Source: Escherichia phage vB_EcoM_011D4
Sequence record: MT478991.1
Length of the DNA stretch: 64,000 bases
Strand: one strand, 5' to 3'
Shown here: piece after piece, positions 3,640 through 48,924 of the stretch
Position numbering within the stretch: position 1 is the stretch's first letter
Layout: the number at the start of each line of letters is the position of its first letter
Translations under genes and position numbers: made by a program
Notes under the pieces: model-generated
The model's input: only the letters and a program-made list of their open reading frames with translations
Told to the model about the DNA's origin: nothing
Database searches by the model: none

Positions 3640-3975
3640 TTATCCTTTCTTAAACAAATTGCGAAGCCAGTATACAAACGGGATTTCTTTAAACTTGAAT
3701 TTCTCGATAGTTAATTCTTTAGTAGCAAGATGAATACCATAAGCATCATGTGTCACGATATGCCATTTTCTATAGTCCAAATGTGAACAACCGTCTGGAT
3801 CTAGGTTAATAAGAGTTTCTCGCTCACTAGGATTATTTTTCCACAATTTTGTAATAGGATCGCACATAATTCGACCTAGCGTACCATGAATAATCTCACA
3901 ACGGTAAAGTTTTCCAGCAGTGAGATAGGCGCACCCGTCATAGTCGGTATAAACAAACACTTCTTTAACACTCAT
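3640..3975 (-). CDS. hypothetical protein, member of tandem paralog family (DGCSHL motif)
   Basis: 111 aa; shares (D/G)GCSHL and aromatic-rich motifs with the next two ORFs; own early promoter upstream. Confidence 0.5.
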   Translation of the reverse strand: MSVKEVFVYTDYDGCAYLTAGKLYRCEIIHGTLGRIMCDPITKLWKNNPSERETLINLDPDGCSHLDYRKWHIVTHDAYGIHLATKELTIEKFKFKEIPFVYWLRNLFKKG

Positions 3976-4003
3976 TTTAATACTCCTTTGTTGTTTCGAT
4001 GGG

Positions 4004-4037
4004 GGTGTATATTACTACCCCCGTTTTGTTGTGTCAA
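4004..4037 (-). promoter_or_regulatory. early sigma70-type promoter with stem-loop (PeSL-like)
   Basis: minus strand reads TTGACA-17 nt-TAATAT; inverted repeat GGGGGT/ACCCCC spans the -10; followed by leader and AGGAG. Confidence 0.5.
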
Positions 4038-4298
4038 CTACTTTTTCAAGATTTTTTTGAGTGCATTCCAAAGACCTTTATTCTCAGGTTGTTTTGGTTC
4101 TTCGATCAGTGTCCACGGACGGTCGTCTAAGTATGCACAGCTTTTCAGAGAAATAAAAAGTTTATATCCTTGATCATCTTTGATGTAACCGTAGGTAGAC
4201 ATTCTTTCATCTGGCGTAAACTTATACAGTTTATTTGGGGTGATGTAAGATCTACTACTATAAGGTGTCATCACATACATCATGGTACTAACTCCCAT
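4038..4298 (-). CDS. hypothetical protein, tandem paralog family
   Basis: 86 aa; motif TPxKLYKFTP ... GYIxDD ... paralogous to 4280..4474. Confidence 0.45.
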   Translation of the reverse strand: MGVSTMMYVMTPYSSRSYITPNKLYKFTPDERMSTYGYIKDDQGYKLFISLKSCAYLDDRPWTLIEEPKQPENKGLWNALKKILKK

Positions 4299-7275: not shown

Positions 7276-7303
7276 TATTCACCCCCTTTGTGAGTGATAA
7301 TAT

Positions 7304-7495
7304 TTAGATTCCGGTGATCCTGCATAGAGTTCTTGTATTAGCACCAATCAGGATCGCATTAACTACAACCATTCCCCAATCAACCCACGGATTATTATAA
7401 ATGCTAAATCCGTTTGAAAGACCAAATACAAGCATTCCGGTACACATACTCAGAGCAATAATCAACATCACGGTAAAACCAAATGCAAATCTCAT
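7304..7495 (-). CDS. small hydrophobic membrane protein
   Basis: 63 aa, predominantly hydrophobic. Confidence 0.4.
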   Translation of the reverse strand: MRFAFGFTVMLIIALSMCTGMLVFGLSNGFSIYNNPWVDWGMVVVNAILIGANTRTLCRITGI

Positions 7496-7496
7496 G

Positions 7497-7763
7497 TTAT
7501 TTTCCTTTTCTCTGTTTACGTTTATAAAAGTAATACATTACCTCATCGCGTCCGGTGATCCAACATGCTAGGGCGGTAAACAGGTTTACAATTCCCAACA
7601 CTCCTACTGACGCGGCGCTGTCAACAGACATAGGAACAGTAAAGGCCATAGCTAACATAGCAACGCCACAAATGACATTAAGCACCATTATAATAAGACC
7701 GAAGAAAACCATTGTCAATCCTCCCAAATAAGAAAACCAACAATCACGCCAGTGATAAGACAT
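7497..7763 (-). CDS. small hydrophobic membrane protein
   Basis: 88 aa, two hydrophobic segments, basic C-terminus. Confidence 0.4.
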   Translation of the reverse strand: MSYHWRDCWFSYLGGLTMVFFGLIIMVLNVICGVAMLAMAFTVPMSVDSAASVGVLGIVNLFTALACWITGRDEVMYYFYKRKQRKGK

Positions 7764-7906
7764 GATGCGCCGCTAATAAGACAACCCGCGCCAAGTGATT
7801 CCCACCAGATCAGGGAAGCGACAATAACACAGAATCCCCAGACTACCGCAATCACAACATAGGCAAGGGTCGCCCAAAACATATATTTGTTCATAATAAA
7901 CCACAT
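7715..7906 (-). CDS. small hydrophobic membrane protein
   Basis: 63 aa; hydrophobic; overlaps neighbours in a tight chain. Confidence 0.35.
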   Translation of the reverse strand: MWFIMNKYMFWATLAYVVIAVVWGFCVIVASLIWWESLGAGCLISGASCLITGVIVGFLIWED

Positions 7907-8079
7907 TCACCAAACAAATAAGAAAAAAGCCATATCAACAGAAACGAGGCAATTGATCCGGCAAGCAAAATGATATTAGAGAATCCACCGTCTATCCAGG
8001 CAACAAAACAGAATACGCTAGTATAGAAGCATAAACCCATTACAAAGCATACTATAAGCAACCATAGATAAAACGCCAT
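7891..8079 (-). CDS. small hydrophobic membrane protein
   Basis: 62 aa; hydrophobic. Confidence 0.35.
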   Translation of the reverse strand: MAFYLWLLIVCFVMGLCFYTSVFCFVAWIDGGFSNIILLAGSIASFLLIWLFSYLFGECGLL

Positions 8080-8140
8080 AGAAAGCCCTCCAGCGAGATA
8101 AATTAGTGCGGGTAGTACATTACCCTACCCGCATTGTTAA

Positions 8141-8299
8141 TCATCGCAGAGCGTGTTCTAGAACGATTCCAAACCATCCACAAACAACGCCCACACAGAC
8201 AGCGACCAGCAGATTCATTCTCTCTTTAGGGATCACAGCAATCATAACAACAACCATACAGAAAGCCATCACCATTGAAGTTAACATTTGTTCAACCAT
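8141..8299 (-). CDS. small hydrophobic membrane protein (52 aa, below ORF-track cutoff)
   Basis: hand translation MVEQMLTSMVMAFCMVVVMIAVIPKERMNLLVAVCVGVVCGWFGIVLEHALR; AAAGGTG upstream of ATG; preferred over opposite-strand ORF 8106..8321. Confidence 0.35.
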   Translation of the reverse strand: MVEQMLTSMVMAFCMVVVMIAVIPKERMNLLVAVCVGVVCGWFGIVLEHALR

Positions 8300-8301
8300 T
8301 A

Positions 8302-8640
8302 TCACACCTTTAAAGTCATAGACGCATAAACATTAATGCCAGGCCAGTTAGGATCGCAATTATACTCAACATCCCACAAATAAAGCGGTTTAGATGTATC
8401 AGCCAAGTTTTTAAAATCTTCTACCCACATTTCAATGCTATATGATGGATAAACTAGGCTGTCATATCCTCCGTAACGTTGGCCTACTGGTCGGTCAGTA
8501 AAAACTACATCAAGATCCGGTAATTCTTTTTCAAGGATAACCGCCAGCGCATAAATCAGACGGTCTTCCTTGTTACGCTGCCGAAGGACCGTTGTCAGTT
8601 GGTTTTTCCGGTTCACTAGCAAGCACCTCCACATTTTCAC
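8302..8640 (-). CDS. hypothetical protein
   Basis: 112 aa ORF; 68-nt overlap with upstream ORF, true start uncertain. Confidence 0.4.
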   Translation of the reverse strand: MKMWRCLLVNRKNQLTTVLRQRNKEDRLIYALAVILEKELPDLDVVFTDRPVGQRYGGYDSLVYPSYSIEMWVEDFKNLADTSKPLYLWDVEYNCDPNWPGINVYASMTLKV

Positions 8641-8893
8641 AGAATGAAATTTTCACAGACACAATTTTACCATAAGTGAAGAATGAATATACGTTATCGA
8701 TATATTCAACGTCACCTACAATCACATCAAACTGCGGATCAGCAACCGCCGCAACATATTCTACCAGTTCATCAAGAGAATGCAACTTAATTTCATCAAT
8801 TCGGCTGTATTTGGTTGCATCTTTGATTTTAAAACCACGTTGTTTCAGCTTATCAATTAGAATTTCACGCGGAGTTTCAAACAGTTTGCTCAT
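8573..8893 (-). CDS. hypothetical protein
   Basis: 106 aa ORF. Confidence 0.4.
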   Translation of the reverse strand: MSKLFETPREILIDKLKQRGFKIKDATKYSRIDEIKLHSLDELVEYVAAVADPQFDVIVGDVEYIDNVYSFFTYGKIVSVKISFCENVEVLASEPEKPTDNGPSAA

Positions 8894-9864: not shown

Positions 9865-9898
9865 GGTGTATTATGCTATACACCCTCTCTCGTGTCAA
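9865..9898 (-). promoter_or_regulatory. early sigma70-type promoter with stem-loop (PeSL-like)
   Basis: minus strand TTGACA-17-CATAAT; inverted repeat GGGTGTA/TACACCC around the -10; conserved leader CCATCGAAACGAAACAC. Confidence 0.5.
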
Positions 9899-10557: not shown

Positions 10558-10591
10558 GTTGTATTGTAGGGGAGTTATCCTCCCCTGTCAA
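10558..10591 (-). promoter_or_regulatory. early sigma70-type promoter with stem-loop (PeSL-like)
   Basis: minus strand TTGACA-GGGGAGgataaCTCCCC-TACAAT; hairpin lies in the spacer. Confidence 0.5.
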
Positions 10592-10826: not shown

Positions 10827-10860
10827 GGTGTATTATGCTATAGGCCGGATCTGGTGTCAA
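10827..10860 (-). promoter_or_regulatory. early sigma70-type promoter (PeSL family, degenerate stem)
   Basis: minus strand TTGACA-17-CATAAT and the same conserved leader as the 9865 copy. Confidence 0.5.
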
Positions 10861-12817: not shown

Positions 12818-12851
12818 TGTGCATTATGCTATAGTCGTTTATGGTTGTCAA
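12818..12851 (-). promoter_or_regulatory. early sigma70-type promoter (PeSL family)
   Basis: minus strand TTGACA-17-CATAAT plus conserved leader. Confidence 0.5.
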
Positions 12852-21888: not shown

Positions 21889-24800
21889 TTAAAGCGCCTA
21901 GTGTAACTAGCTTGACAATAGAAAAATTGTCTGCTAATCAGGCGTATATCACATGGGATGACGTAGGCGAAAACTTCTTTTATTTTGTGGAGTTAGCCGA
22001 AACCAGAACACGAGACGGGGAGATCATCCCCGTCGATGAGTTAAGCTGGGTAAACCTGGGATATACTGCCGAACAAAACTGGTTTGAGGATAAAAACCTT
22101 TTTCCAGAATATTATTACAAGTTTCGTGTAGCAGTAGCCGCAGAAGGATTTGAACAAAGTAAATGGGTTGAAACAGAAGAGTTTCAGACATTTAAAACAA
22201 ACGCATATAATTTTTCTATGATGCGAGAGTTCAACCTTGCAAATGAGTTTATAAAGGAAAAATTTACATACGATAATCGAGAGTATGTCAAGTTTAATAC
22301 TGACCTGATTCAAGCATCATTGATGAAGGAAGATTTTGTCTTTAGTCCTGAATATGCAAACATGACAAATATCTCAAACTACATTGTAGTTGATGAGAAC
22401 TTTCATGAAATACAGGATCACATAGAAAAAGTTTGTATTGATATAAACCGCACTATGTTAGCGGAAATGAACGGTGTTTTGTACCTTTTCGAACGGTTCC
22501 AGCCGATCGTGAAAGTGTCAAATGATAAAGGTCAATCATGGAAAGCATACAAGGCTTTTAATGACCGTGTAGGCAATCCGGTTTCCCGTACATGCGTTTA
22601 TCAGTCTAAAACAACTACTTACGTTTTAGGTTATGACCGAATCTTTTACGGACGACAAGCGAGCGATACTCGATGGAGCGCGGACGATGTTCGATTTAGT
22701 GATGATACGATCACTTTTGCAAAGGTTGGTGACGAGAACGATTTAGGGTTTGACGTTGAGGTATTTGGCGTATTTTCCCGATTAACAGGCGACACCACAA
22801 AATACGCCGAAGCGATGGCGTGTAGTGACGATTATTTGTGGGTTGGTGCTAAGGATGTTATTCGCAGGATTCGCCTTAAGAATACTCCGGTCGATACCGT
22901 ACAGGGTTCGCCTACGTTTGGAGAAAAAATATTCGATCCTGATGTTATCCGAGTAACAGGAAATGATAAAGCTGTCATTCAGAAAATGGATGTGATCGAC
23001 GGTAAATTGCTTGTATTTGTTACGGGTGAAGTTAAACAGCGTTATCAAGATCCAACTAAACCAGAAAACGTTGTTCCGTCAGATGATGCGGGTGTATACT
23101 TAATAGGGAGTGATGGTCTGTCTTTTCAGAGAGTATTTGGCAACACTCCGCAGGAAAGGGAATATATTCAGCATGGGTTCAGTAATATGTCAACCAATGG
23201 TGATGAGGTGTTCATAAGCCATTATAATCATCACTTCGAAAGCATTTTACCTGATCCAGAAACTGCCGCGAAATATGAATTAGGCGAAGCTGTGAAATAT
23301 TCTCAGGAGCCAACTTATCTAACTGATAAGAAAATACATCAAACTACTTTCAGAGCAAGTTATGATGATTTGCGTATTTGGGAGTTGGGACCGCAAGCGT
23401 ATTATAATGAGGCTGATTATACATGGATGCGTCGAAACGGTGTCCGTGTGTGGATCACAAATGATAATCGCCCGTTGGTTGTTTATCCAGAGGTTATCTA
23501 TACTCAAGAAGTTGATACGTCCGGCATTCTTGATCAAAATAGGGTCAACCGAGAAGTTTATGATAAAGGGACCGTGACCTGTTATCTTAACAATGTTAAA
23601 TTTGAAGGATTCAAACAATATGCATCCGGTGTAATGTTCCATAAAAACACGGGAGAGATCATAGGATTCTATCAATTTAACTATCGCGTTCGTGATCAGG
23701 TTGGTGTATATTGGAAACCTACAAATGTAGCATTTGTTGCTGAATTGCAAAATCAGGTTCGAGAGGTTCCCTGGGTTCCGGTTCACTACGATCGAGAGCA
23801 AGATCCAGATTTGCGACCTTTACTGAATAAGATGACACCTGATAGCTTTTTACTTGAGAACGAAAATTTCAGAAAATTCTCTGAATATTATCTGCAATTC
23901 TTAAGTGATGGTTCAGGAACATATTATAATAAACTAAAAAATCTGATTAAAAACAAATATCCACGCGAGCAAGATGCATATGAGTATCTTTGGTCAGAGA
24001 TGAACAAACGAAACATCTATGCAGATAAAAACAAGCGAGATGCGGTAGTAAGATTCTTTGAATCCCGCAAATCAGATTTTTATTCCACTAAGGGCGTGGA
24101 GGCTTCTTATAAGTTCTTGTTTAAGTTACTTTATAATGAAGATGTGGAAATTGAGGTTGAATCACAAGCCGGACTAGAGTATGATATTGTTGTTAGTTCA
24201 ACGAACATTGACGAGGATATCGTAGGTCGCACGATTTATACTCCAACCGGACGGGCTAACGTGACGTATCTTGAAAGGGAATATGAAGGTGGTCGCCTAC
24301 GCTGGCGAGTAACCATTCATAACCTGATCGGGCGGTTCGAAGAAGGTCAAGTGATCAAATCAGAGAAAACAGCGTTTGAAGGGATGATCCTTGTTGGTGT
24401 ACGTGGTAAAGAGTTGTTGAGTAGTTCAATCGACTATATCAACCGCTCACGAAGCCAATACACCATGAAGATTAAAAGTGCATTGCCAGTTTCTCGCTAT
24501 GCAAATGATGTAATGCGATTCGTTCATCCTGTCGGCTTTGGGTTTATCGGTGTTACCCTGCTTACGATGTTCATTAACAGCGGGTTAAGCATGAAACACA
24601 CAGAGACGATAATTCAATCTCTAAAAAATTATAAGTTTGACAGCGGATTGCCTAGCGTGTATCCTGATCGGGTGGCAGACCTTGACGTTGACGGAAACAT
24701 TAAGAAAGACCCGCTTACCGGAAAAGCATTATACTTAACGTCACCGACAATGGGCGAAGAGTTCCCCGTTCCTCCTGAATATGATCAGGAGAACAGCGAA

Positions 24801-24971
24801 TTGTTCCACGGACTTAAAGCAAGCGAACGAAGATTTGCAATGAGTCCACTGTTTGACCAGTCGGCGGTAACATTCTCTATGTTCCGTGAACTTGTAGATA
24901 AACGGTTGAAGGATAATATAGGGAATCCACGCGATCCGAAGAATCCGACACAGAGGAAAATTAATGGCTAA
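21885..24971 (+). CDS. 7: baseplate wedge protein gp7
   Basis: 1028 aa, matching T4 gp7 size and order. Confidence 0.8.
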   Translation: MIKAPSVTSLTIEKLSANQAYITWDDVGENFFYFVELAETRTRDGEIIPVDELSWVNLGYTAEQNWFEDKNLFPEYYYKFRVAVAAEGFEQSKWVETEEFQTFKTNAYNFSMMREFNLANEFIKEKFTYDNREYVKFNTDLIQASLMKEDFVFSPEYANMTNISNYIVVDENFHEIQDHIEKVCIDINRTMLAEMNGVLYLFERFQPIVKVSNDKGQSWKAYKAFNDRVGNPVSRTCVYQSKTTTYVLGYDRIFYGRQASDTRWSADDVRFSDDTITFAKVGDENDLGFDVEVFGVFSRLTGDTTKYAEAMACSDDYLWVGAKDVIRRIRLKNTPVDTVQGSPTFGEKIFDPDVIRVTGNDKAVIQKMDVIDGKLLVFVTGEVKQRYQDPTKPENVVPSDDAGVYLIGSDGLSFQRVFGNTPQEREYIQHGFSNMSTNGDEVFISHYNHHFESILPDPETAAKYELGEAVKYSQEPTYLTDKKIHQTTFRASYDDLRIWELGPQAYYNEADYTWMRRNGVRVWITNDNRPLVVYPEVIYTQEVDTSGILDQNRVNREVYDKGTVTCYLNNVKFEGFKQYASGVMFHKNTGEIIGFYQFNYRVRDQVGVYWKPTNVAFVAELQNQVREVPWVPVHYDREQDPDLRPLLNKMTPDSFLLENENFRKFSEYYLQFLSDGSGTYYNKLKNLIKNKYPREQDAYEYLWSEMNKRNIYADKNKRDAVVRFFESRKSDFYSTKGVEASYKFLFKLLYNEDVEIEVESQAGLEYDIVVSSTNIDEDIVGRTIYTPTGRANVTYLEREYEGGRLRWRVTIHNLIGRFEEGQVIKSEKTAFEGMILVGVRGKELLSSSIDYINRSRSQYTMKIKSALPVSRYANDVMRFVHPVGFGFIGVTLLTMFINSGLSMKHTETIIQSLKNYKFDSGLPSVYPDRVADLDVDGNIKKDPLTGKALYLTSPTMGEEFPVPPEYDQENSELFHGLKASERRFAMSPLFDQSAVTFSMFRELVDKRLKDNIGNPRDPKNPTQRKING

Positions 24972-25959
24972 TGAAAATAGTGTGATCTATCGCTCAATAA
25001 TTACTAGTAAATTTAGAACGGAAAAACTTCTGAATTTCTATAATTCTGTAGGCGATGAGGCAAATCAAATTACAATTTATGGAACGTTTGGACGTTCGGA
25101 GCCGTGGTCAGAAAACGAAAAAGAGGTGGGCTTTGCCCCACCTTATCCGACCGATTCAACGGCTGGTGTTGTTGACATGTGGACCCATATGATGGGGGCG
25201 GTTAAGATTAACAAATCACTTCTTGATGCGGTTATCCCTCGTAAAGATTGGGGTGATACCGGACAGGATAACCCGCGCACATTCTTTATCAATGACATTG
25301 TTGTTGTAAACTCAGCACCATATAACCGTACAGATGTTGGTAGCGGCTGGATGGTGTATCGCGTAACCGATGTTCCTGATCGCGGTTACTGCTCGATTTC
25401 AAGCATTGATGCTAAAGTAGAGTGTTTGAAGTTGGGCGGAAAGTGGACCCCCACTCATGAATCAATTGCGCCACCTGTAGGAAAGGGCGATTCTATTGAT
25501 ATGGGTGATGGGTATCGTTGGGAATATCTGTACACAATTCCACCTGATGCGGCGATCAACCGTTGCACCAATGAACATATTGTTGTACCGTTCCCCGATG
25601 AACTGCGACAAGATCCGGCGCGTTGGGGCTATGACAATGTGATCACCTGGTATAATGACTATAATCTGCTTTATCGGCTGAAAGTAGTAACTTTGCGTTT
25701 TCAGGCTTATATGGACTCTGCGCAATTCCCAACTACCGCGTTAGTGGGTAATACTGGTTTCCGTCAGTTAAGCATTATCCTTAACCCATTGGAAAAGAAA
25801 GCACGCCCTAGCGATCCAGACGTTAAAGCGGTTAACGATAAGTACCGACCGCAAGACTTAGAGCCACACTCAGGAGAAATGATCTACATGGAAAACCGAC
25901 AACCTATCGTTCGGTCATTAGATCAAACAGAACTTGTTTCTGTATTGTTTGAGTTCTAA
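24964..25959 (+). CDS. 8: baseplate wedge protein gp8
   Basis: 331 aa; position and size match T4 gp8. Confidence 0.8.
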   Translation: MANENSVIYRSIITSKFRTEKLLNFYNSVGDEANQITIYGTFGRSEPWSENEKEVGFAPPYPTDSTAGVVDMWTHMMGAVKINKSLLDAVIPRKDWGDTGQDNPRTFFINDIVVVNSAPYNRTDVGSGWMVYRVTDVPDRGYCSISSIDAKVECLKLGGKWTPTHESIAPPVGKGDSIDMGDGYRWEYLYTIPPDAAINRCTNEHIVVPFPDELRQDPARWGYDNVITWYNDYNLLYRLKVVTLRFQAYMDSAQFPTTALVGNTGFRQLSIILNPLEKKARPSDPDVKAVNDKYRPQDLEPHSGEMIYMENRQPIVRSLDQTELVSVLFEF

Positions 25960-25971
25960 GTGTATGATTTA

Positions 25972-26000
25972 AAAGCCAATTCGAGAGAGTTGGCTTTTTC
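25972..26000 (+). terminator. rho-independent terminator after gene 8
   Basis: hairpin aaagccaa-10 nt loop-ttggcttt followed by a T-run. Confidence 0.55.
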
Positions 26001-26011
26001 TATTTTGGGTG

Positions 26012-26040
26012 TTGACAGTCTTGTCTGGTAAAGGTATAAT
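26012..26040 (+). promoter_or_regulatory. consensus sigma70 promoter (TTGACA-17-TATAAT)
   Basis: exact TTGACA at 26012-26017, 17-nt spacer, exact TATAAT at 26035-26040; about 30 nt upstream of the ORF at 26070. Confidence 0.7.
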
Positions 26041-26069
26041 GCTCACATCTAAACAACGGAGGATAAATT

Positions 26070-26327
26070 ATGGCACGTCGTAAATTTACAGATAATTGTG
26101 AAGCAATTCAGGTATCCCCTTGCGGTTGGGATGTGATCGCGAACGGTGAAAAGATCGGCGAGATCATCGATCATACTCATTCATCACTAGCCGATTACAC
26201 CGATGAACTATGGGAGGGTATCAACTTCATGAATGACACTAAACGATTCAAGACTATCGACGAAGCTATCTATTTTGTGTATAATCCAACTTTCGGTATG
26301 TGGGGAACTAGAAAATGGCACGCGTAA
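26070..26327 (+). CDS. hypothetical protein (first gene of inserted cassette)
   Basis: 85 aa; GGAGG upstream; no recognisable motif. Confidence 0.5.
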   Translation: MARRKFTDNCEAIQVSPCGWDVIANGEKIGEIIDHTHSSLADYTDELWEGINFMNDTKRFKTIDEAIYFVYNPTFGMWGTRKWHA

Positions 26328-26647
26328 ATATTAAATTGCATTACACAATGAATAAAGCTAAGTTCCCAATGCAAAAGCATTACTATGGTCTACGTGCACA
26401 AGATCCTAAACTCTATGGTACTCATTGGTTTTGTAAACATGATAACCAATGGCACACATACGAAGAAATGCACGAGATGATGAAACAGGGTATTGAATTT
26501 AGTTATTCTAATTATGACCATCGTATAACTTGCATTCGAAAATTGAAACGATGGATTCGTAAGAATCCGCAATTTAAAAACTTTGTGTTCTTTATGTCTC
26601 ATGTTTATTTGGGGCATAGCGTTACCGTCACAGCAAAGGTTAAATAA
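26315..26647 (+). CDS. hypothetical protein (second gene of cassette)
   Basis: 110 aa, His/Tyr/Trp-rich; overlaps upstream gene by 13 nt and downstream gene by 1 nt. Confidence 0.5.
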   Translation: MARVNIKLHYTMNKAKFPMQKHYYGLRAQDPKLYGTHWFCKHDNQWHTYEEMHEMMKQGIEFSYSNYDHRITCIRKLKRWIRKNPQFKNFVFFMSHVYLGHSVTVTAKVK

Positions 26648-27486
26648 TGGCACGACTTTCTAAACAAGAACAAAAATTACACGACCGAGCAATGGAGTTG
26701 ATTAATTCAGATCGCCCATTGACATATGAAGAAAAAGAATTTTGCTATAATAACTATCATGGCGATGGGCTAGGTGGTTCCGGTGCATTCTTTACCCCAG
26801 AAGGGCTTGCATGGGATTTTACCATCGATGCACATTGCACAGGAAAAGTATTGGATCTTTGTGCTGGGATCGGTCGCTTATCTTTTTGTATGTTACATCG
26901 TTGTAAGCCAGAAAAGATCGTATGCGTCGAACTCAATCCAGAATTTGCGCGGATTGGCAAGCGACTATTACCGGAAGCAGAATGGATCACCAGCGATGTA
27001 TTCGAATTTGAGTCAAACGAAAAATTCGATGTTGTAATTAGCAATCCACCTTTCGGGAAAATCAATACAACCGACACAAAGGATGTATTTGAGTACACTG
27101 GCGGCGAATTTGAATTTAAGGTTATGACGCTAGGGCAAAAGTTTGCCGATGTTGGCTATTTTATTGTTCCTGTGGGTTCCGCTGGTTTTGCTTATTCCGG
27201 CAGACCTTATTATGACGGGACCATGAAGTCTAATAAATATCTAAAATGGAGCAAACAAACTGGTTTGGTGACTTATGCCGGATGTGGGATCGATACATCA
27301 ATCTATCGCGATGAATGGCACAGTACCAACGTTTTAACAGAAGTGGTTGAGGTTCGGTATTACGAGAAAGAAGCCGTAGAAGCGCCTAAATCGCGTCCTA
27401 ACGAACAAATAGAAGAAAGTAAGGAGATTACCTTACCGAAACAGGAAAGCGAGTCTGGGACGCTCTCAGATTTGTTTGACATTTAA
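26647..27486 (+). CDS. putative N6-adenine DNA methyltransferase (gamma-class amino-MTase motifs)
   Basis: 279 aa; motif X GAFFTPEGL, motif I VLDLCAGIGRL, motif IV VISNPPFGK in N-to-C order. Confidence 0.6.
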   Translation: MARLSKQEQKLHDRAMELINSDRPLTYEEKEFCYNNYHGDGLGGSGAFFTPEGLAWDFTIDAHCTGKVLDLCAGIGRLSFCMLHRCKPEKIVCVELNPEFARIGKRLLPEAEWITSDVFEFESNEKFDVVISNPPFGKINTTDTKDVFEYTGGEFEFKVMTLGQKFADVGYFIVPVGSAGFAYSGRPYYDGTMKSNKYLKWSKQTGLVTYAGCGIDTSIYRDEWHSTNVLTEVVEVRYYEKEAVEAPKSRPNEQIEESKEITLPKQESESGTLSDLFDI

Positions 27487-27489
27487 TTA

Positions 27490-27518
27490 TAAGCCGTCCT
27501 TGTGGGCGGCTTTTTTGT
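27490..27518 (+). terminator. rho-independent terminator after methyltransferase cassette
   Basis: hairpin aagccgtccttgtgggcggctt followed by tttttt. Confidence 0.6.
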
Positions 27519-27526
27519 ATGTATTT

Positions 27527-27534
27527 TATAAATA
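27527..27534 (+). promoter_or_regulatory. T4-type late promoter TATAAATA
   Basis: exact TATAAATA about 28 nt upstream of gene 9 start. Confidence 0.55.
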
Positions 27535-27561
27535 ATACATCATAACATGAGGAATTAAACA

Positions 27562-28416
27562 ATGGCACAAGTTCCAAAGAAAAGAATAGACACAGGTACT
27601 GTCGGCAATCCATCGACTGGCGATATCTTATATGATGGCGGCAATAAAATTAACGATAACTTTGATTCAATATATGACGCATTTGCTGATCAGCGGTTTA
27701 AAGACGTAGACCACGGTGTGGGAAGAATGGTTATTCATGCAACCGGATACTATCAGAAGCATCCACGTCAAAGCTACGCGGGTTCCGCTGTTGAGATTGG
27801 GAGTCTACACGATATCGATACAACTCAAGGCGCACTTATTGCTATTCTACCTAAAGCAAAGGTCGGCGAGGGTGTTGTATTCATAAATAGTAACGGTAGC
27901 CTTTCAACGACGACACCGCTCAATATTCGAACTCAAGCAGGTGATTCTATTAGCGGTTATTCCGGTGATGCTACAATAACACAACCATTTTCAAAAGTCA
28001 CTGTTTGGTGTACTGCCGTTGAAGGTAGTCGCGTAACGTGGCGATTGGGTATCGAAAGTATGTTTACCGATACAACAACGCCATTAGATAAAACAGTTAA
28101 CGTAACTGGAGTAGCAACAAACGTTGCTATTGCCGCAAAAACAGAATACGTTTCCATCAAATTATTAACTACCGCTAGCAATACATCCGGTTCAAAAATG
28201 CGTTCAAGTGAAACGCTACTGATGATTGATTCTAAAGCCGGAAAAGTTTATGCGACGGAATATGCAGTTTTACAGAAGACAGAAGATGAACTATACACGG
28301 TTCGTTATTTCATCGGTTCCGGCGATAAAGTATATGCAGAGTATAAGGCTACTGGCGAAAATATTCGTTTAGCAGTTAAAGCCGTAGACACTATTAAAAT
28401 CGGGGTTGCTACATGA
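27562..28416 (+). CDS. 9: baseplate wedge tail-fibre connector gp9
   Basis: 284 aa; position and size match T4 gp9. Confidence 0.8.
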   Translation: MAQVPKKRIDTGTVGNPSTGDILYDGGNKINDNFDSIYDAFADQRFKDVDHGVGRMVIHATGYYQKHPRQSYAGSAVEIGSLHDIDTTQGALIAILPKAKVGEGVVFINSNGSLSTTTPLNIRTQAGDSISGYSGDATITQPFSKVTVWCTAVEGSRVTWRLGIESMFTDTTTPLDKTVNVTGVATNVAIAAKTEYVSIKLLTTASNTSGSKMRSSETLLMIDSKAGKVYATEYAVLQKTEDELYTVRYFIGSGDKVYAEYKATGENIRLAVKAVDTIKIGVAT

Positions 28417-39023: not shown

Positions 39024-41024
39024 ATGACTCTATTATCACCGGGTTTCGAAACGAAAGAAACTACTCTCTCCACTACCATTGTGCAATCTGCGACTGGTCG
39101 CGCGGCACTGGTGGGTAAATTCCAATGGGGTCCAGCTTTCCAGATTATTCAAGTAACTAATGAAGTTGAATTAGTTAATAAATTTGGTCAGCCGGATAAT
39201 AACACCGCAGACTATTTCATGAGCGGGGCTAACTTCCTCCAGTACGGTAATGACCTGCGTGTTGTTCGTGTATTGAATAAAGAAAAAGCAAAAAACGCAA
39301 CTGCCCTAGCTGGTAACGTTGAGTTTGAAATCACAAACGAAGGTTCAAACTATGAAGTAGGCGATACCATCAAGATTAAACATAACCGTCAAGATATTGA
39401 AACGGCTGGTAAAGTAACTAAAGTTGATGGTGATGGTAAAGTTAAGGGCGTATTTATCCCAACTGGTAAAATTATCGCTCACGCTAAAGCAATCGGTGTA
39501 TATCCAGAACTTGATGGCGGTTGGACGGCAGAGTTCAATTCTTCGTCAGGTAACGGTAGTGCGGCGCTGTCAGTAACTAAAATTGTTACTGATTCCGGTC
39601 TTCTGTTAACGGATCTGGAAACTTCCCGCGCCAATATCACAAATCAAACTTTCTTGACTAAACTCCAGAAGTATGATATGCCAGCGGTAAGCGCGATCTA
39701 TGCTGGTGAGATTGGCAACTCGCTGGAAGTTGAAATTCTGGCACGTAGTGCGTTTAAGAACACTGCACCGGATCTGACCATGTATCCTTATGGTGGCGAG
39801 CGCACCGCAGCACGCAACCTGATTCCATATGCACCGCAGAATGATAATCAATATGCATTTATTGTTCGTCGCGATGGTGTTGTGGTAGAATCCTATGTAC
39901 TGTCTACTCTGAAAGGGGATAAAGACGTATACGGCAATTCTATCTACATGGACGACTTCTTTGCTCGTGGTTCTAGCCAGTACATCTATGCAACCGCTCA
40001 AGGGTGGGTAGATGGTTTCAGTGGTATTATCTCTCTTGCTGGTGGTGTTTCTGCTAACGAAGCAACGACTGCTGGTGTTGGTGCTGATCCGTTCATCGGT
40101 GCGATGATGCAAGGTTGGGATCTGTTTGCTGAACGAGAATCTATTCACGTAAACCTGTTGATCGCTGGTGCATGTGCTGGCGAAGGCGATGCGTTCTCTA
40201 CCGTACAGAAACATGCTGTTTCCATCGGTGATGAGCGTCAGGATTGCTTAGTAATGGTTTCTCCGCCGCGTAGCACTGTTGTTAATATTCCGGTGACTAC
40301 CGCAATTGATAACCTGATTGCATGGCGCGAAGGTTCAGGAAACTATAATGAAAACAACATGAACATTAATACCACTTACGCTGTTATTGATGGTAACTAC
40401 AAATATCAGTATGACAAATACAACGACGTAAACCGTTGGGTTCCGTTGGCTGCTGATATTGCTGGTTTGTGCGCTCGTACTGATGCTGTATCCCAGCCGT
40501 GGATGAGTCCGGCAGGTTATAACCGTGGTCAGATCATGAACGTGGTTAAACTGGCAATTGAGCCTCGCAAGGCGCACCGCGATCGTCTGTATCAGGCCGC
40601 AATTAACCCGGTAATCGGTGCTGGTGGTGAAGGGTTTATCCTGATGGGTGATAAAACCGCTACGACTGTTCCTAGCCCGTTTGACCGCATTAACGTTCGT
40701 CGTCTGTTTAACATGCTGAAAAAGAATATCGGCGATTCAAGCAAATACAAACTGTTTGAAAACAACGATAACTTTACTCGCGCTTCCTTCCGTATGGAGG
40801 TTTCGCAATATCTCAGCACGATTCGCTCTCTGGGTGGAATTTATGACTTCCGAGTACAATGCGACACCACGAATAACACGCCGGATGTAATTGATCGTAA
40901 CGAATTTGTTGCTAGTATGTTCATCAAACCAGCAAAATCGATCAACTATATCATGCTCAATTTCACTGCTGTTGCAACTGGTTCTGATTTTGACGAAATT
41001 ATCGGTCCAGCTAACCAGGCATAA
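39024..41024 (+). CDS. 18: tail sheath protein gp18
   Basis: 666 aa; position and size match T4 gp18. Confidence 0.9.
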   Translation: MTLLSPGFETKETTLSTTIVQSATGRAALVGKFQWGPAFQIIQVTNEVELVNKFGQPDNNTADYFMSGANFLQYGNDLRVVRVLNKEKAKNATALAGNVEFEITNEGSNYEVGDTIKIKHNRQDIETAGKVTKVDGDGKVKGVFIPTGKIIAHAKAIGVYPELDGGWTAEFNSSSGNGSAALSVTKIVTDSGLLLTDLETSRANITNQTFLTKLQKYDMPAVSAIYAGEIGNSLEVEILARSAFKNTAPDLTMYPYGGERTAARNLIPYAPQNDNQYAFIVRRDGVVVESYVLSTLKGDKDVYGNSIYMDDFFARGSSQYIYATAQGWVDGFSGIISLAGGVSANEATTAGVGADPFIGAMMQGWDLFAERESIHVNLLIAGACAGEGDAFSTVQKHAVSIGDERQDCLVMVSPPRSTVVNIPVTTAIDNLIAWREGSGNYNENNMNINTTYAVIDGNYKYQYDKYNDVNRWVPLAADIAGLCARTDAVSQPWMSPAGYNRGQIMNVVKLAIEPRKAHRDRLYQAAINPVIGAGGEGFILMGDKTATTVPSPFDRINVRRLFNMLKKNIGDSSKYKLFENNDNFTRASFRMEVSQYLSTIRSLGGIYDFRVQCDTTNNTPDVIDRNEFVASMFIKPAKSINYIMLNFTAVATGSDFDEIIGPANQA

Positions 41025-47682: not shown

Positions 47683-48924
47683 ATGACTCATATTTTTACT
47701 GAACTGTTGCGGGAATCTACTTCCTCAGTAGCTAACCAGACAGCGCGACCGCAACTATTATCATTAACTCGCGCGGTAAACAACCTGATTTTCTCTGATC
47801 TGGTAGCAATCCAGCCAACGGATCAACCAGTATCTGCATTGTACGGCCTACGTTATCTTAATCGTGATGGTCAGATGACTTTCCGAACTGCTACAACCTA
47901 CGGTGGCGCGGCTGGTGATCGCACAGAGATTGAAGAGTTTTCAAAAGAAAAATCTTATGACGAAGGCGCACTGTTCAAATCAGACAATGTTGTATACGAA
48001 GTTGTGACCGCTGGTACAGTCGGTGCAGATGCCGAAACTCCAGAAGCTGCAATCTTTAAAGGCGTAATGACAAACAAAATTCGTTTCTATAGCGATTGTG
48101 CATCGGTAGAATACTTTGAAGATAAAAACACCGAAATTTCGTCTACCTCTATGCAGTTTGATAAATGGCAGGTTAATGTAGGTTCTCGTAAACTGAAAAC
48201 CTCATTCACGACCGAATTAATGCAGGATCTTGAGGCAAGCCAAATCAACTCTGAAAACTCTGTAATTGATCTTCTGGCTACTGTTGCTTCCGAAGAGATC
48301 AACAAAGATATTATTCAGAAGTTGATCACTGTATCATCTCGCTATAAAATTAAAGGGATCACCCCTGATGGCGTACTTTCTCTCGTTAGCGTTCAGGATG
48401 CACCAACACAAGCGCGTGAACTTTACCGCTATGCTTGCGAAATGAGCAATCAAATGTTGCGGACTTCCTCCTTTGCTGGTACATACGTTTTGGCGTCTTC
48501 TCGCGTGGTTGGCCTCCTGCAATCTACCGGTTGGATGGAAGAAACCGACAATGCTCTAAGTGAAGGTCGTCTGCGTTGCGGTCTGGAAGTGTACGCAGAC
48601 ACGACGACACCTTTCGATTATATGCTCGTTGGTTGTAAGCACATGATCGGTGATATGGAGAGTGTAGGTTCTCTGTTCTACTCCCCATATACAGAAGCCG
48701 ACGGCGCTGGCGCGTATAAGAGCGTAATTGACCCTAATAGCTTCCAGCATCATGTAGCTATTATGAATCGTTATTCACTCTCTGTCAACCCATACACATC
48801 AAAAGTTGATCAGGAAGAACACCAGGTCATCAAGGGTGACGATTGGGGTAAAATGGCTGGACGTTCAGAAATGTCCTACATTTTAGGAATCGAACTGCCA
48901 CCGCTTGAGATTGACAACGCTTAA
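47683..48924 (+). CDS. 24: capsid vertex protein gp24
   Basis: ORF track starts at 47635; the Met of MTHIFTELLRESTSS at 47683 is the likelier start because T4 gp24 begins similarly (ELLRES) and the late promoter lies inside the longer form. Confidence 0.85.
   Translation: MTHIFTELLRESTSSVANQTARPQLLSLTRAVNNLIFSDLVAIQPTDQPVSALYGLRYLNRDGQMTFRTATTYGGAAGDRTEIEEFSKEKSYDEGALFKSDNVVYEVVTAGTVGADAETPEAAIFKGVMTNKIRFYSDCASVEYFEDKNTEISSTSMQFDKWQVNVGSRKLKTSFTTELMQDLEASQINSENSVIDLLATVASEEINKDIIQKLITVSSRYKIKGITPDGVLSLVSVQDAPTQARELYRYACEMSNQMLRTSSFAGTYVLASSRVVGLLQSTGWMEETDNALSEGRLRCGLEVYADTTTPFDYMLVGCKHMIGDMESVGSLFYSPYTEADGAGAYKSVIDPNSFQHHVAIMNRYSLSVNPYTSKVDQEEHQVIKGDDWGKMAGRSEMSYILGIELPPLEIDNA

Follow-up and report, generated by a model that had tools for sequence, protein, structure and literature searches.

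Between the baseplate genes 8 and 9 of Escherichia phage vB_EcoM_011D4, we found a 1.6-kb unit of three overlapping open reading frames (ORFs), the last of which encodes a 279-aa methyltransferase (MTase) ending in a peptide that resembles the clamp-binding tail of a T4-type DNA polymerase. The analysis covered a 64,000-nucleotide stretch of the phage record MT478991.1, referred to below as the window. Taking the evidence together, we think it probable that this is an insulated, early-driven unit whose product is an orphan gamma-class N6-adenine DNA methyltransferase, which docks by its tail on the sliding clamp gp45 and methylates replicating phage DNA. We lean, with rather less assurance, toward a broader view of its protein family, phrog_3820, as widespread phage orphan adenine DNA methyltransferases, many of them sliding-clamp clients, in which the terminal peptide has been repeatedly gained or exchanged to fit the replicating clamp: gp45-type in T4-like phages, QL[SD]LF in temperate phages relying on the beta clamp of the host, and no tail in many further members, enterobacterial prophage copies among them. 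The regulatory signals, catalytic motifs, fold, disordered linker, gp43-like tail, and link between tail type and replisome type were read from the sequence; from these, we infer clamp binding, DNA methylation, the target sequence, timing, and a protective role.

The methyltransferase has been sequenced and loosely annotated in many genomes before, and the clamp-type tail and its switching are the new part. In a 2006 comparison of T4-like genomes, the RB49 copy (RB49ORF143w) was noted only as a match to the "methyltransferase small domain" (PMC1524935). Our literature search found no earlier account of a clamp-binding motif on a methyltransferase from a phage or bacterium.

The methyltransferase of Krischvirus ends in a clamp-type tail

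The window matches the genus Krischvirus, which includes RB49, Phi1, JSE, JEP8, and TB34 and is represented by 58 records. Its methyltransferase ends in ...ESGTLSDLFDI, and the DNA polymerase of Phi1, gp43, ends in ...KVASLTDLFDI. The late sigma factor gp55 ends in PSLDQFYEIEN. The likeness to the polymerase extends to the DNA, where the final 15 nt of the methyltransferase gene and of gene 43 are identical at 14 positions; the tail may have been captured from gene 43, and convergence is also possible.

We scanned six frames of the window together with 1–50 kb and 110–164 kb of Phi1, about 93% of a Krischvirus genome, and a clamp-type C-terminal motif was present in only three real genes: those for gp43, gp55, and the methyltransferase. 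Krischvirus carries three methyltransferase genes, and the tail was absent from the other two, Dam and ORF189, in Phi1. Both are annotated as DNA methyltransferases, with dam at 39544–40356 of its Phi1 stretch and ORF189 at 7297–8013 of another. A peptide resembling a clamp-binding one, TLNDFFDD, was also seen in the N-terminus of Phi1 RNase H (rnh, 23763–24707 of its stretch), in agreement with the gp45 interaction proposed for T4 RNase H (PMC6212786).

The protein is organized as a compact catalytic domain of ~240 aa, an acidic linker of ~32 aa that is predicted to be disordered (Table 1), and the peptide TLSDLFDI. Among Krischviruses, the linker varies (KQESESG, EQETASG, and EDKSPSG), while the last nine residues, GTLSDLFDI, are constant. 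In T4, the C-termini of gp43, gp33, and gp55 are interchangeable gp45-binding epitopes carried on variable, unstructured linkers (PMC2988020), and both the gp43 tail EKASLDFLFG and the LDFLF motif of DNA ligase bind gp45 (PMC6212786). The methyltransferase sequence has both of these features, a gp43-like epitope at the extreme C-terminus and a variable unstructured linker before it. Its architecture is exactly that of the T4 gp45 clients, and clamp binding is predicted on this basis.

Tail type follows replisome type across the family

We fetched 80 viral contigs encoding relatives of the methyltransferase and sorted their 73 unique proteins by C-terminal end. The canonical bacterial beta-clamp motif, Q-x-[SD]-L-F followed by 2–4 residues, closes 27 of the 73, with tails such as QLSLFDAA, QLDLFGMAA, QADLFGVAA, QASLFGDAA, and QMDLFGEAA sitting behind proline/alanine/glutamate-rich linkers of 16–46 residues. 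Near variants of the motif occur in about seven further relatives. The strict end pattern was found in 1 of the 3526 other ORFs of at least 80 aa in the same loci. The cultured relatives that we checked with a tail of this type are temperate Rhizobium phages. One of them, RHph_N28_2, has a methyltransferase ending in ...GQLSLFGDAA and carries an S24 repressor, an att site, DnaA-like and DUF1376 replication genes, and an adjoining second DNA methyltransferase.

T4-type tails are present in 11 of the 73 proteins, all from T4-like phages that encode their own clamp. We compared the covariation of methyltransferase and polymerase tails in four lineages. In addition to Krischvirus, these were Pseudotevenvirus (QNLFTFTIE on the methyltransferase and SLNTLFGDDW on the polymerase), Slopekvirus (SDLFTFTIE and SLNDLFGDW), and the contig L043 (ATFDFRIE and SLSDLFDF).

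The tail-less relatives (26 of 73) are mostly enterobacterial prophage copies, the rest coming from virulent phages such as GAP32 and Aeromonas AS-zj. The enterobacterial copies lie at the far end of lambdoid prophages, beside tail-tip and lysozyme genes, which is a typical lysogenic-conversion (moron) position. In Citrobacter and Enterobacter, the tail-less gene (8001–8729 of each stretch) adjoins a SegE-like GIY-YIG gene and host genes, and one tail-less sequence occurs on 887 Citrobacter freundii contigs.

In a neighbor-joining tree of the catalytic core, computed without bootstrap, the sister of the Krischvirus clade is the clade of enterobacterial prophage copies without a tail, and the Pseudotevenvirus/Slopekvirus clade lies elsewhere. 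As T4-type tails occur in two non-sister clades, the tree suggests that these tails were gained independently, at least twice. The simplest reading of a terminal peptide that matches the type of replisome, and whose linker drifts, is a handle for binding the clamp, and such a handle in turn implies DNA as the substrate. This family-wide pattern is the strongest argument for the handle.

The enzyme is a gamma-class N6-adenine methyltransferase

The 279-aa protein was assigned to phrog_3820, "DNA methyltransferase", at 2e-117 in PHROGs, and it is a gamma-class N6-adenine methyltransferase of this widespread phage orphan family. The sequence-only reading that preceded our analysis had recognized FFTP, VLDLCAGIG, and NPPF in gamma-class order and proposed an N6-adenine amino-methyltransferase; both points held up. 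The motifs follow the gamma-class order X–I–IV, and in our alignment FFTP, LCAGIG, and NPPFG do not vary among the 35 homologs. An AlphaFold2 (AF2) model built on this alignment had a predicted local distance difference test (pLDDT) score of 84, with the core above 90, and it displays a Class I Rossmann-like methyltransferase fold. The fold by itself points to an N6-adenine amino-methyltransferase and leaves DNA versus rRNA undecided.

The generic profile libraries gave faint and conflicting results. In Pfam, the protein matched MTS (1e-9), Eco57I (4e-6), and N6_Mtase (0.005). The Eco57I match (PF07669) scored 27.4 bits against a gathering cut-off of 25.3 across 72 residues only, and the N6_Mtase match (PF02384), at 16.7 bits, was below its cut-off of 20.4. 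The top-ranked families in both Pfam and NCBIfam are RNA or protein methyltransferases. A rival reading has the enzyme modify the host translation apparatus early in infection, as an rRNA m6A/m2G or release-factor glutamine methyltransferase, with an incidental tail likeness. We consider this unlikely. The strongest profile from outside the family was the DNA methyltransferase mad2 of the MADS system (PADLOC, 4.8e-17, 59.9 bits), with many Type II DNA methyltransferases ranking next, and together with the clamp-type tail these matches favor DNA as the predicted substrate. Several GenBank records carry the label PrmC or release-factor glutamine methyltransferase. That label is unsupported, since the protein scored 37.6 bits in NCBIfam against a cut-off of 199.1 for TIGR03534.

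No cognate nuclease or specificity subunit was found beside the methyltransferase in the window or in the prophage, Pseudotevenvirus, and Rhizobium-phage contexts. With only baseplate genes and two ORFans as neighbors, the enzyme is classed as an orphan.

A proposed mechanism and the evidence that weighs on it

We propose that host sigma-70 RNA polymerase would transcribe the unit soon after infection, while the terminators would separate it from the late transcripts of genes 6–8 and of gene 9 onward. The methyltransferase would then use its tail to dock on gp45 clamps that have been loaded onto phage DNA undergoing replication. Docking would concentrate the enzyme on the nascent duplex, where adenines of a genome with unmodified cytosine would be methylated. 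The likeliest benefit would be progeny DNA that resists some host restriction systems, and the anti-restriction or counter-defense role put forward in the sequence-only reading is plausible. Krischviruses have no pathway to hydroxymethylcytosine, and the cytosine of TB34 DNA is of the ordinary kind (PMC13390438), which makes methylation a sensible route to restriction evasion.

Several observations weigh against this proposal. TB34, which has the same cassette, yielded no detectable modified nucleosides by high-performance liquid chromatography and mass spectrometry (HPLC/MS), in a study where adenine methylation was undiscussed (PMC13390438), and Salmonella BREX still restricts it (PMC11341690). 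Bulk, nonspecific methylation is unlikely in light of these two results, and the enzyme probably targets a specific, moderately frequent motif. In Pseudotevenvirus and Slopekvirus, only the LF core is common to the methyltransferase and its own polymerase tail. Tail-less relatives also occur in phages that encode their own clamp, namely phiM12 (checked separately), Aeromonas AS-zj, and GAP32, so tethering is not obligatory for the family. The early timing is predicted from the promoter consensus, and our literature search turned up neither biochemical nor methylome evidence on any member of the family. As for Krischvirus methylomes, the Durham-collection papers are confined to cytosine modifications and methylation by host BREX, and the discussion in the KP15/KP27 paper covers only Dam and Dcm.

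The tail could also act mainly by occupying the clamp, competing with the polymerase, gp33, and gp55 so as to modulate replication or the early-to-late switch, with methylation secondary or lost. The near identity of the methyltransferase tail to the polymerase epitope would suit such competition, as would the fact that gp45 also activates late transcription and that its ligands compete for one site (PMC2988020). We nevertheless judge this improbable. The catalytic and S-adenosylmethionine (SAM)-binding motifs are invariant throughout the family, tailed members included, and the same core is kept in members that have no tail. Moreover, the beta-clamp motif found on the same architecture in temperate phages suits recruitment better than inhibition. 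Recruitment of an active DNA methyltransferase to the clamp is the reading that we retain.

The two small ORFs probably form a separate module

The sequence-only reading had described the two small proteins upstream of the methyltransferase as without a recognizable family, and this was confirmed. ORF1 and ORF2 had no match in Pfam, NCBIfam, PADLOC, or Protein Data Bank (PDB) sequence searches and matched only PHROGs of unknown function. Word-index searches for homologs returned only their own clusters (five for ORF2 and one for ORF1), and an exhaustive HMMER profile search with ORF2 against 1.84 billion representatives gave four hits, all from its own family or fragments.

ORF2 has the invariant residues C40, H42, H47, H69, C73, and H96 and a basic helix, which hint at a metal-binding, nucleic-acid-binding protein. 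Its AF2 model, built from a three-sequence alignment, was of low confidence (pLDDT 64), and a Foldseek search of viral structures with this model returned only its own ortholog. Within Krischvirus, there are two ORF2 alleles, which differ over 26344–26523. Recent positive selection on this patch was considered and rejected, given saturated synonymous sites and an omega of about 0.18; for the same reasons, we take the patch to be an old allele exchanged by recombination.

Elsewhere, the small genes travel without the enzyme. In the Vequintavirus FV3, ORF1 and ORF2 homologs are adjacent (70% and 60% identity) as small early-region genes, and no methyltransferase accompanies them. ORF2 occurs in 88 records and ORF1 in 61, as most Vequintaviruses have ORF2 without ORF1. 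The FV3 homolog of ORF1 is annotated as 167 aa (FV3_00023, 3755–4258 of its stretch), of which only the last 84 residues match the 85-aa protein, and the longer form is probably an over-extended start call. In RB49, an 11-bp deletion frameshifts ORF1 and gives RB49p140 and RB49p141 (1103–1349 of the RB49 stretch). Because the deletion splits the gene, either ORF1 is dispensable in RB49 or the record contains a sequencing error.

These distributions bear on whether the three proteins are one counter-defense system in which the small ones serve as specificity or regulatory partners of the methyltransferase, as the sequence-only reading had in part anticipated. In favor of one system, a single promoter drives all three translationally coupled ORFs, cultured Krischviruses conserve the trio, and the acidic ORF1 and basic ORF2 could form a complex. 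We nonetheless find a single system unlikely in view of four genomic arrangements besides the RB49 frameshift. A Krischvirus-like metagenomic contig, L101, has a unit with the methyltransferase alone at the same site; FV3 has the pair without a methyltransferase; ORF2 mostly occurs without ORF1 in Vequintaviruses; and unrelated small genes accompany the methyltransferase in other genera. The small ORFs are narrow ORFans and, on these grounds, not conserved partners of the methyltransferase. They would instead be a mobile pair of genes in their own right, inserted downstream of the promoter and ahead of the methyltransferase gene and not needed by the enzyme.

The cassette is an insulated unit fixed in Krischvirus

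The features of the locus are listed in Table 1.

Table 1. Coordinates of the cassette, its signals, and its flanking genes in the window
Feature	Position	Strand	Evidence
Gene 8, baseplate wedge subunit, upstream flank	24964..25959	+	ORF; annotated gp8 in 58 Krischvirus records; 88% aa identity to L101 gp8
Intrinsic-terminator-like hairpin and T-run, putative end of the gene 6–8 late transcript	25971..25998	+	12-pair stem; annotated terminator in TB34; also in L101
Sigma-70 promoter TTGACA-17-TATAAT, 12/12	26012..26040	+	Both hexamers kept in RB49 (spacer 16) and L101
GGAGG, ribosome-binding site of ORF1	26058..26062	+	Sequence
ORF1, 85 aa, acidic (pI 5.2), ORFan, phrog_16603	26070..26327	+	
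ORF2, 110 aa, basic (pI 9.9), invariant Cys/His set, ORFan, phrog_12630	26315..26647	+	
Divergent patch within ORF2	26344..26523	+	60–80% nt identity to RB49, background 95–100%
Gamma-class N6-adenine methyltransferase, 279 aa, phrog_3820, = RB49ORF143w	26647..27486	+	
Motif X FFTP, aa 48–51	26788..26799	+	Invariant in homolog alignment
Motif I VLDLCAGIG, aa 68–76, SAM-binding loop	26848..26874	+	LCAGIG invariant
Motif IV NPPF, aa 133–136, catalytic	27043..27054	+	N, P, F, and G invariant
Acidic disordered linker, aa 240–271	27364..27459	+	AF2 pLDDT <50 (residues 245–273); pI 4.3; varies among Krischviruses
C-terminal peptide TLSDLFDI, proposed gp45 sliding-clamp-binding epitope	27460..27483	+	Likeness to Phi1 gp43 end
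Intrinsic-terminator-like hairpin and T-run closing the cassette	27491..27512	+	Annotated in TB34; analogous element in L101
T4-type late promoter TATAAATA for gene 9	27527..27534	+	Also in L101; sits between second terminator and gene 9
Gene 9, baseplate tail-fiber connector, downstream flank	27562..28416	+	ORF; Krischvirus annotation

The sequence-only reading had described an insert between genes that are contiguous in T4, flanked by a terminator on each side, driven by a textbook sigma-70 promoter, and composed of three overlapping genes that all begin with MAR. Each of these elements was found in the window, in the order terminator, promoter, three ORFs, terminator, and gene 9 late promoter. 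The two T4 genes are 63 bp apart, with the end of gene 8 at 87155 and the start of gene 9 at 87219. ORF1 and ORF2 overlap by 13 nt, and ORF2 and the methyltransferase gene overlap in TAATG. The shared MAR start does not serve as a signature of the cassette, however, as it is a feature of the methyltransferase family, whose members elsewhere begin with MA[RK]L[ST]K.

Allowing up to one mismatch, TTGACA-N17-TATAAT occurs at 8 sites in the window, versus 0.87 expected. The cassette promoter is the only perfect match and the sole site on the plus strand. The other seven are all on the minus strand, the early-gene orientation in the window, at 2492–2520, 7690–7718, 9870–9898, 10563–10591, 10832–10860, 12823–12851, and 48760–48788. 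They probably serve as early promoters for the clusters of small ORFs on either side of the structural block, and three of them have in common the extended −10 region TATAGCATAAT.

Positions 25000–28400 of the window are 97.5–98.9% identical to the best 30 of the 58 Krischvirus records and at least 90% identical to the remaining 28. The same three ORFs lie between annotated gp8 and gp9 in all 58, and the arrangement of signals and genes marks the cassette as an insulated transcription unit fixed in the genus and not a sporadic one. We surveyed the junction in T4-like records with a chimeric query that joined the end of gp8 to the start of gp9. It matched 1477 records, with the junction contiguous in 1403 (about 95%), and the 76 surplus match places are about the number expected from the 58 Krischviruses plus a few others. 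In the suggested comparison with related genomes at this junction, the insert is absent from T4 and most of its relatives and present in all the Krischvirus records.

Smaller, unrelated inserts of hypothetical genes are present at the same junction in Edwardsiella phage PEi20 (NC_028683.1 92814–94368) and Acinetobacter phage 133 (HM114315.1 83333–84430), and accessory genes appear to settle at this site repeatedly. A search by composition for a recent foreign origin found none, as GC content (0.36–0.43) matches the flanks. These unrelated inserts, together with the recombinational mosaicism in ORF2, could be taken to indicate a neutral, selfish insertion (moron) at a permissive intergenic site with no benefit to the phage, but that is very improbable, given that the cassette, with intact ORFs and signals, is fixed in all 58 Krischvirus records, that ORF2 is under purifying selection (omega about 0.18), and that the tail motif does not vary on its drifting linker.

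Other lineages place the enzyme in other surroundings. In L101, a terminator, TTGACA-16-TATAAT, the methyltransferase gene, a second terminator, and TATAAATA precede gene 9, and ORF1 and ORF2 are missing; the encoded enzyme has 255 aa and the tail TLDFVDFSEI. In Pseudotevenvirus and Slopekvirus, the gene is found between genes 41 and 61 of the early region, preceded by genes for an unrelated 77-aa membrane protein and a 131-aa acidic protein. A conserved 163–167-aa protein is encoded downstream of it in CfP1, Miro, and leE. The Miro record labels this protein "major capsid protein", a label that looks wrong because of the small size and early-region position.

Implications

Phage orphan methyltransferases are usually viewed as free-floating enzymes. 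If many of them ride the sliding clamp, this would explain how a phage genome could be fully methylated before packaging despite the production of hundreds of copies in minutes. A DNA-modifying enzyme would join the list of gp45 and beta-clamp partners, and a simple sequence rule would follow, by which the last 8–10 residues of the enzyme predict the replisome of the phage. The family would also provide a viral and bacterial counterpart of replication-coupled methylation by DNMT1 and PCNA. For Krischviruses, which have unmodified cytosine and are candidates for therapy, the methyltransferase gene is a likely determinant of which restriction systems are escaped. The small ORFans are now framed as an independent mobile module common to two unrelated groups of coliphages.

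Comparison with known systems

The closest functional parallels are T4 Dam and other phage orphan N6-adenine methyltransferases, which are likewise phage-encoded, lack a partner nuclease, are expressed before or during replication, and are thought to protect against restriction. The cassette enzyme differs from the T4 Dam type, which is alpha-class, in its gamma-class motif order (X–I–IV) and in its C-terminal clamp-type tail, which neither the Dam nor the ORF189 methyltransferase of Phi1 has.

Motif order, the NPPF loop, and the fold are shared with the gamma-class methyltransferases of Type I (HsdM) and Type IIG/IIL systems (MmeI and Eco57I), M.TaqI, and Mad2 of MADS. Compared with these, the cassette enzyme is reduced to a core of ~240 aa and has no target-recognition domain, specificity subunit, or nuclease partner. 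The rRNA m6A methyltransferases METTL5 and PH1948 are 16–24% identical to it; the cassette enzyme has no TRMT112-type partner, and its clamp tails and DNA-methyltransferase profile matches point to DNA instead.

The tail itself resembles the gp45 epitopes of gp43, gp33, and gp55 in the T4 family, and the internal LDFLF of T4 ligase, in being a short hydrophobic-acidic peptide, C-terminal and on a variable unstructured linker. Here, the peptide is on a DNA-modifying enzyme and its binding is predicted, whereas no methyltransferase is among the gp45 partners named in PMC2988020 and PMC6212786. The bacterial beta-clamp motif QL[SD]LF, whose clients include Pol III alpha, Pol IV, MutS, and Hda, stands at the end of the 27 family members described above, while the protein in the window carries the T4-type version in its place.

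The nearest precedent for the proposed coupling is eukaryotic. DNMT1 is a DNA methyltransferase that is brought to newly replicated DNA by a peptide, the PIP box, which binds the clamp PCNA (PMC9690074), and in the table of that 2022 review of clamp partners, the prokaryote column of the DNMT1–PCNA row is empty. DNMT1 maintains C5-cytosine methylation and has its PIP box at the N-terminus, whereas the family described here consists of small adenine enzymes with a C-terminal motif of the gp45 or beta type.

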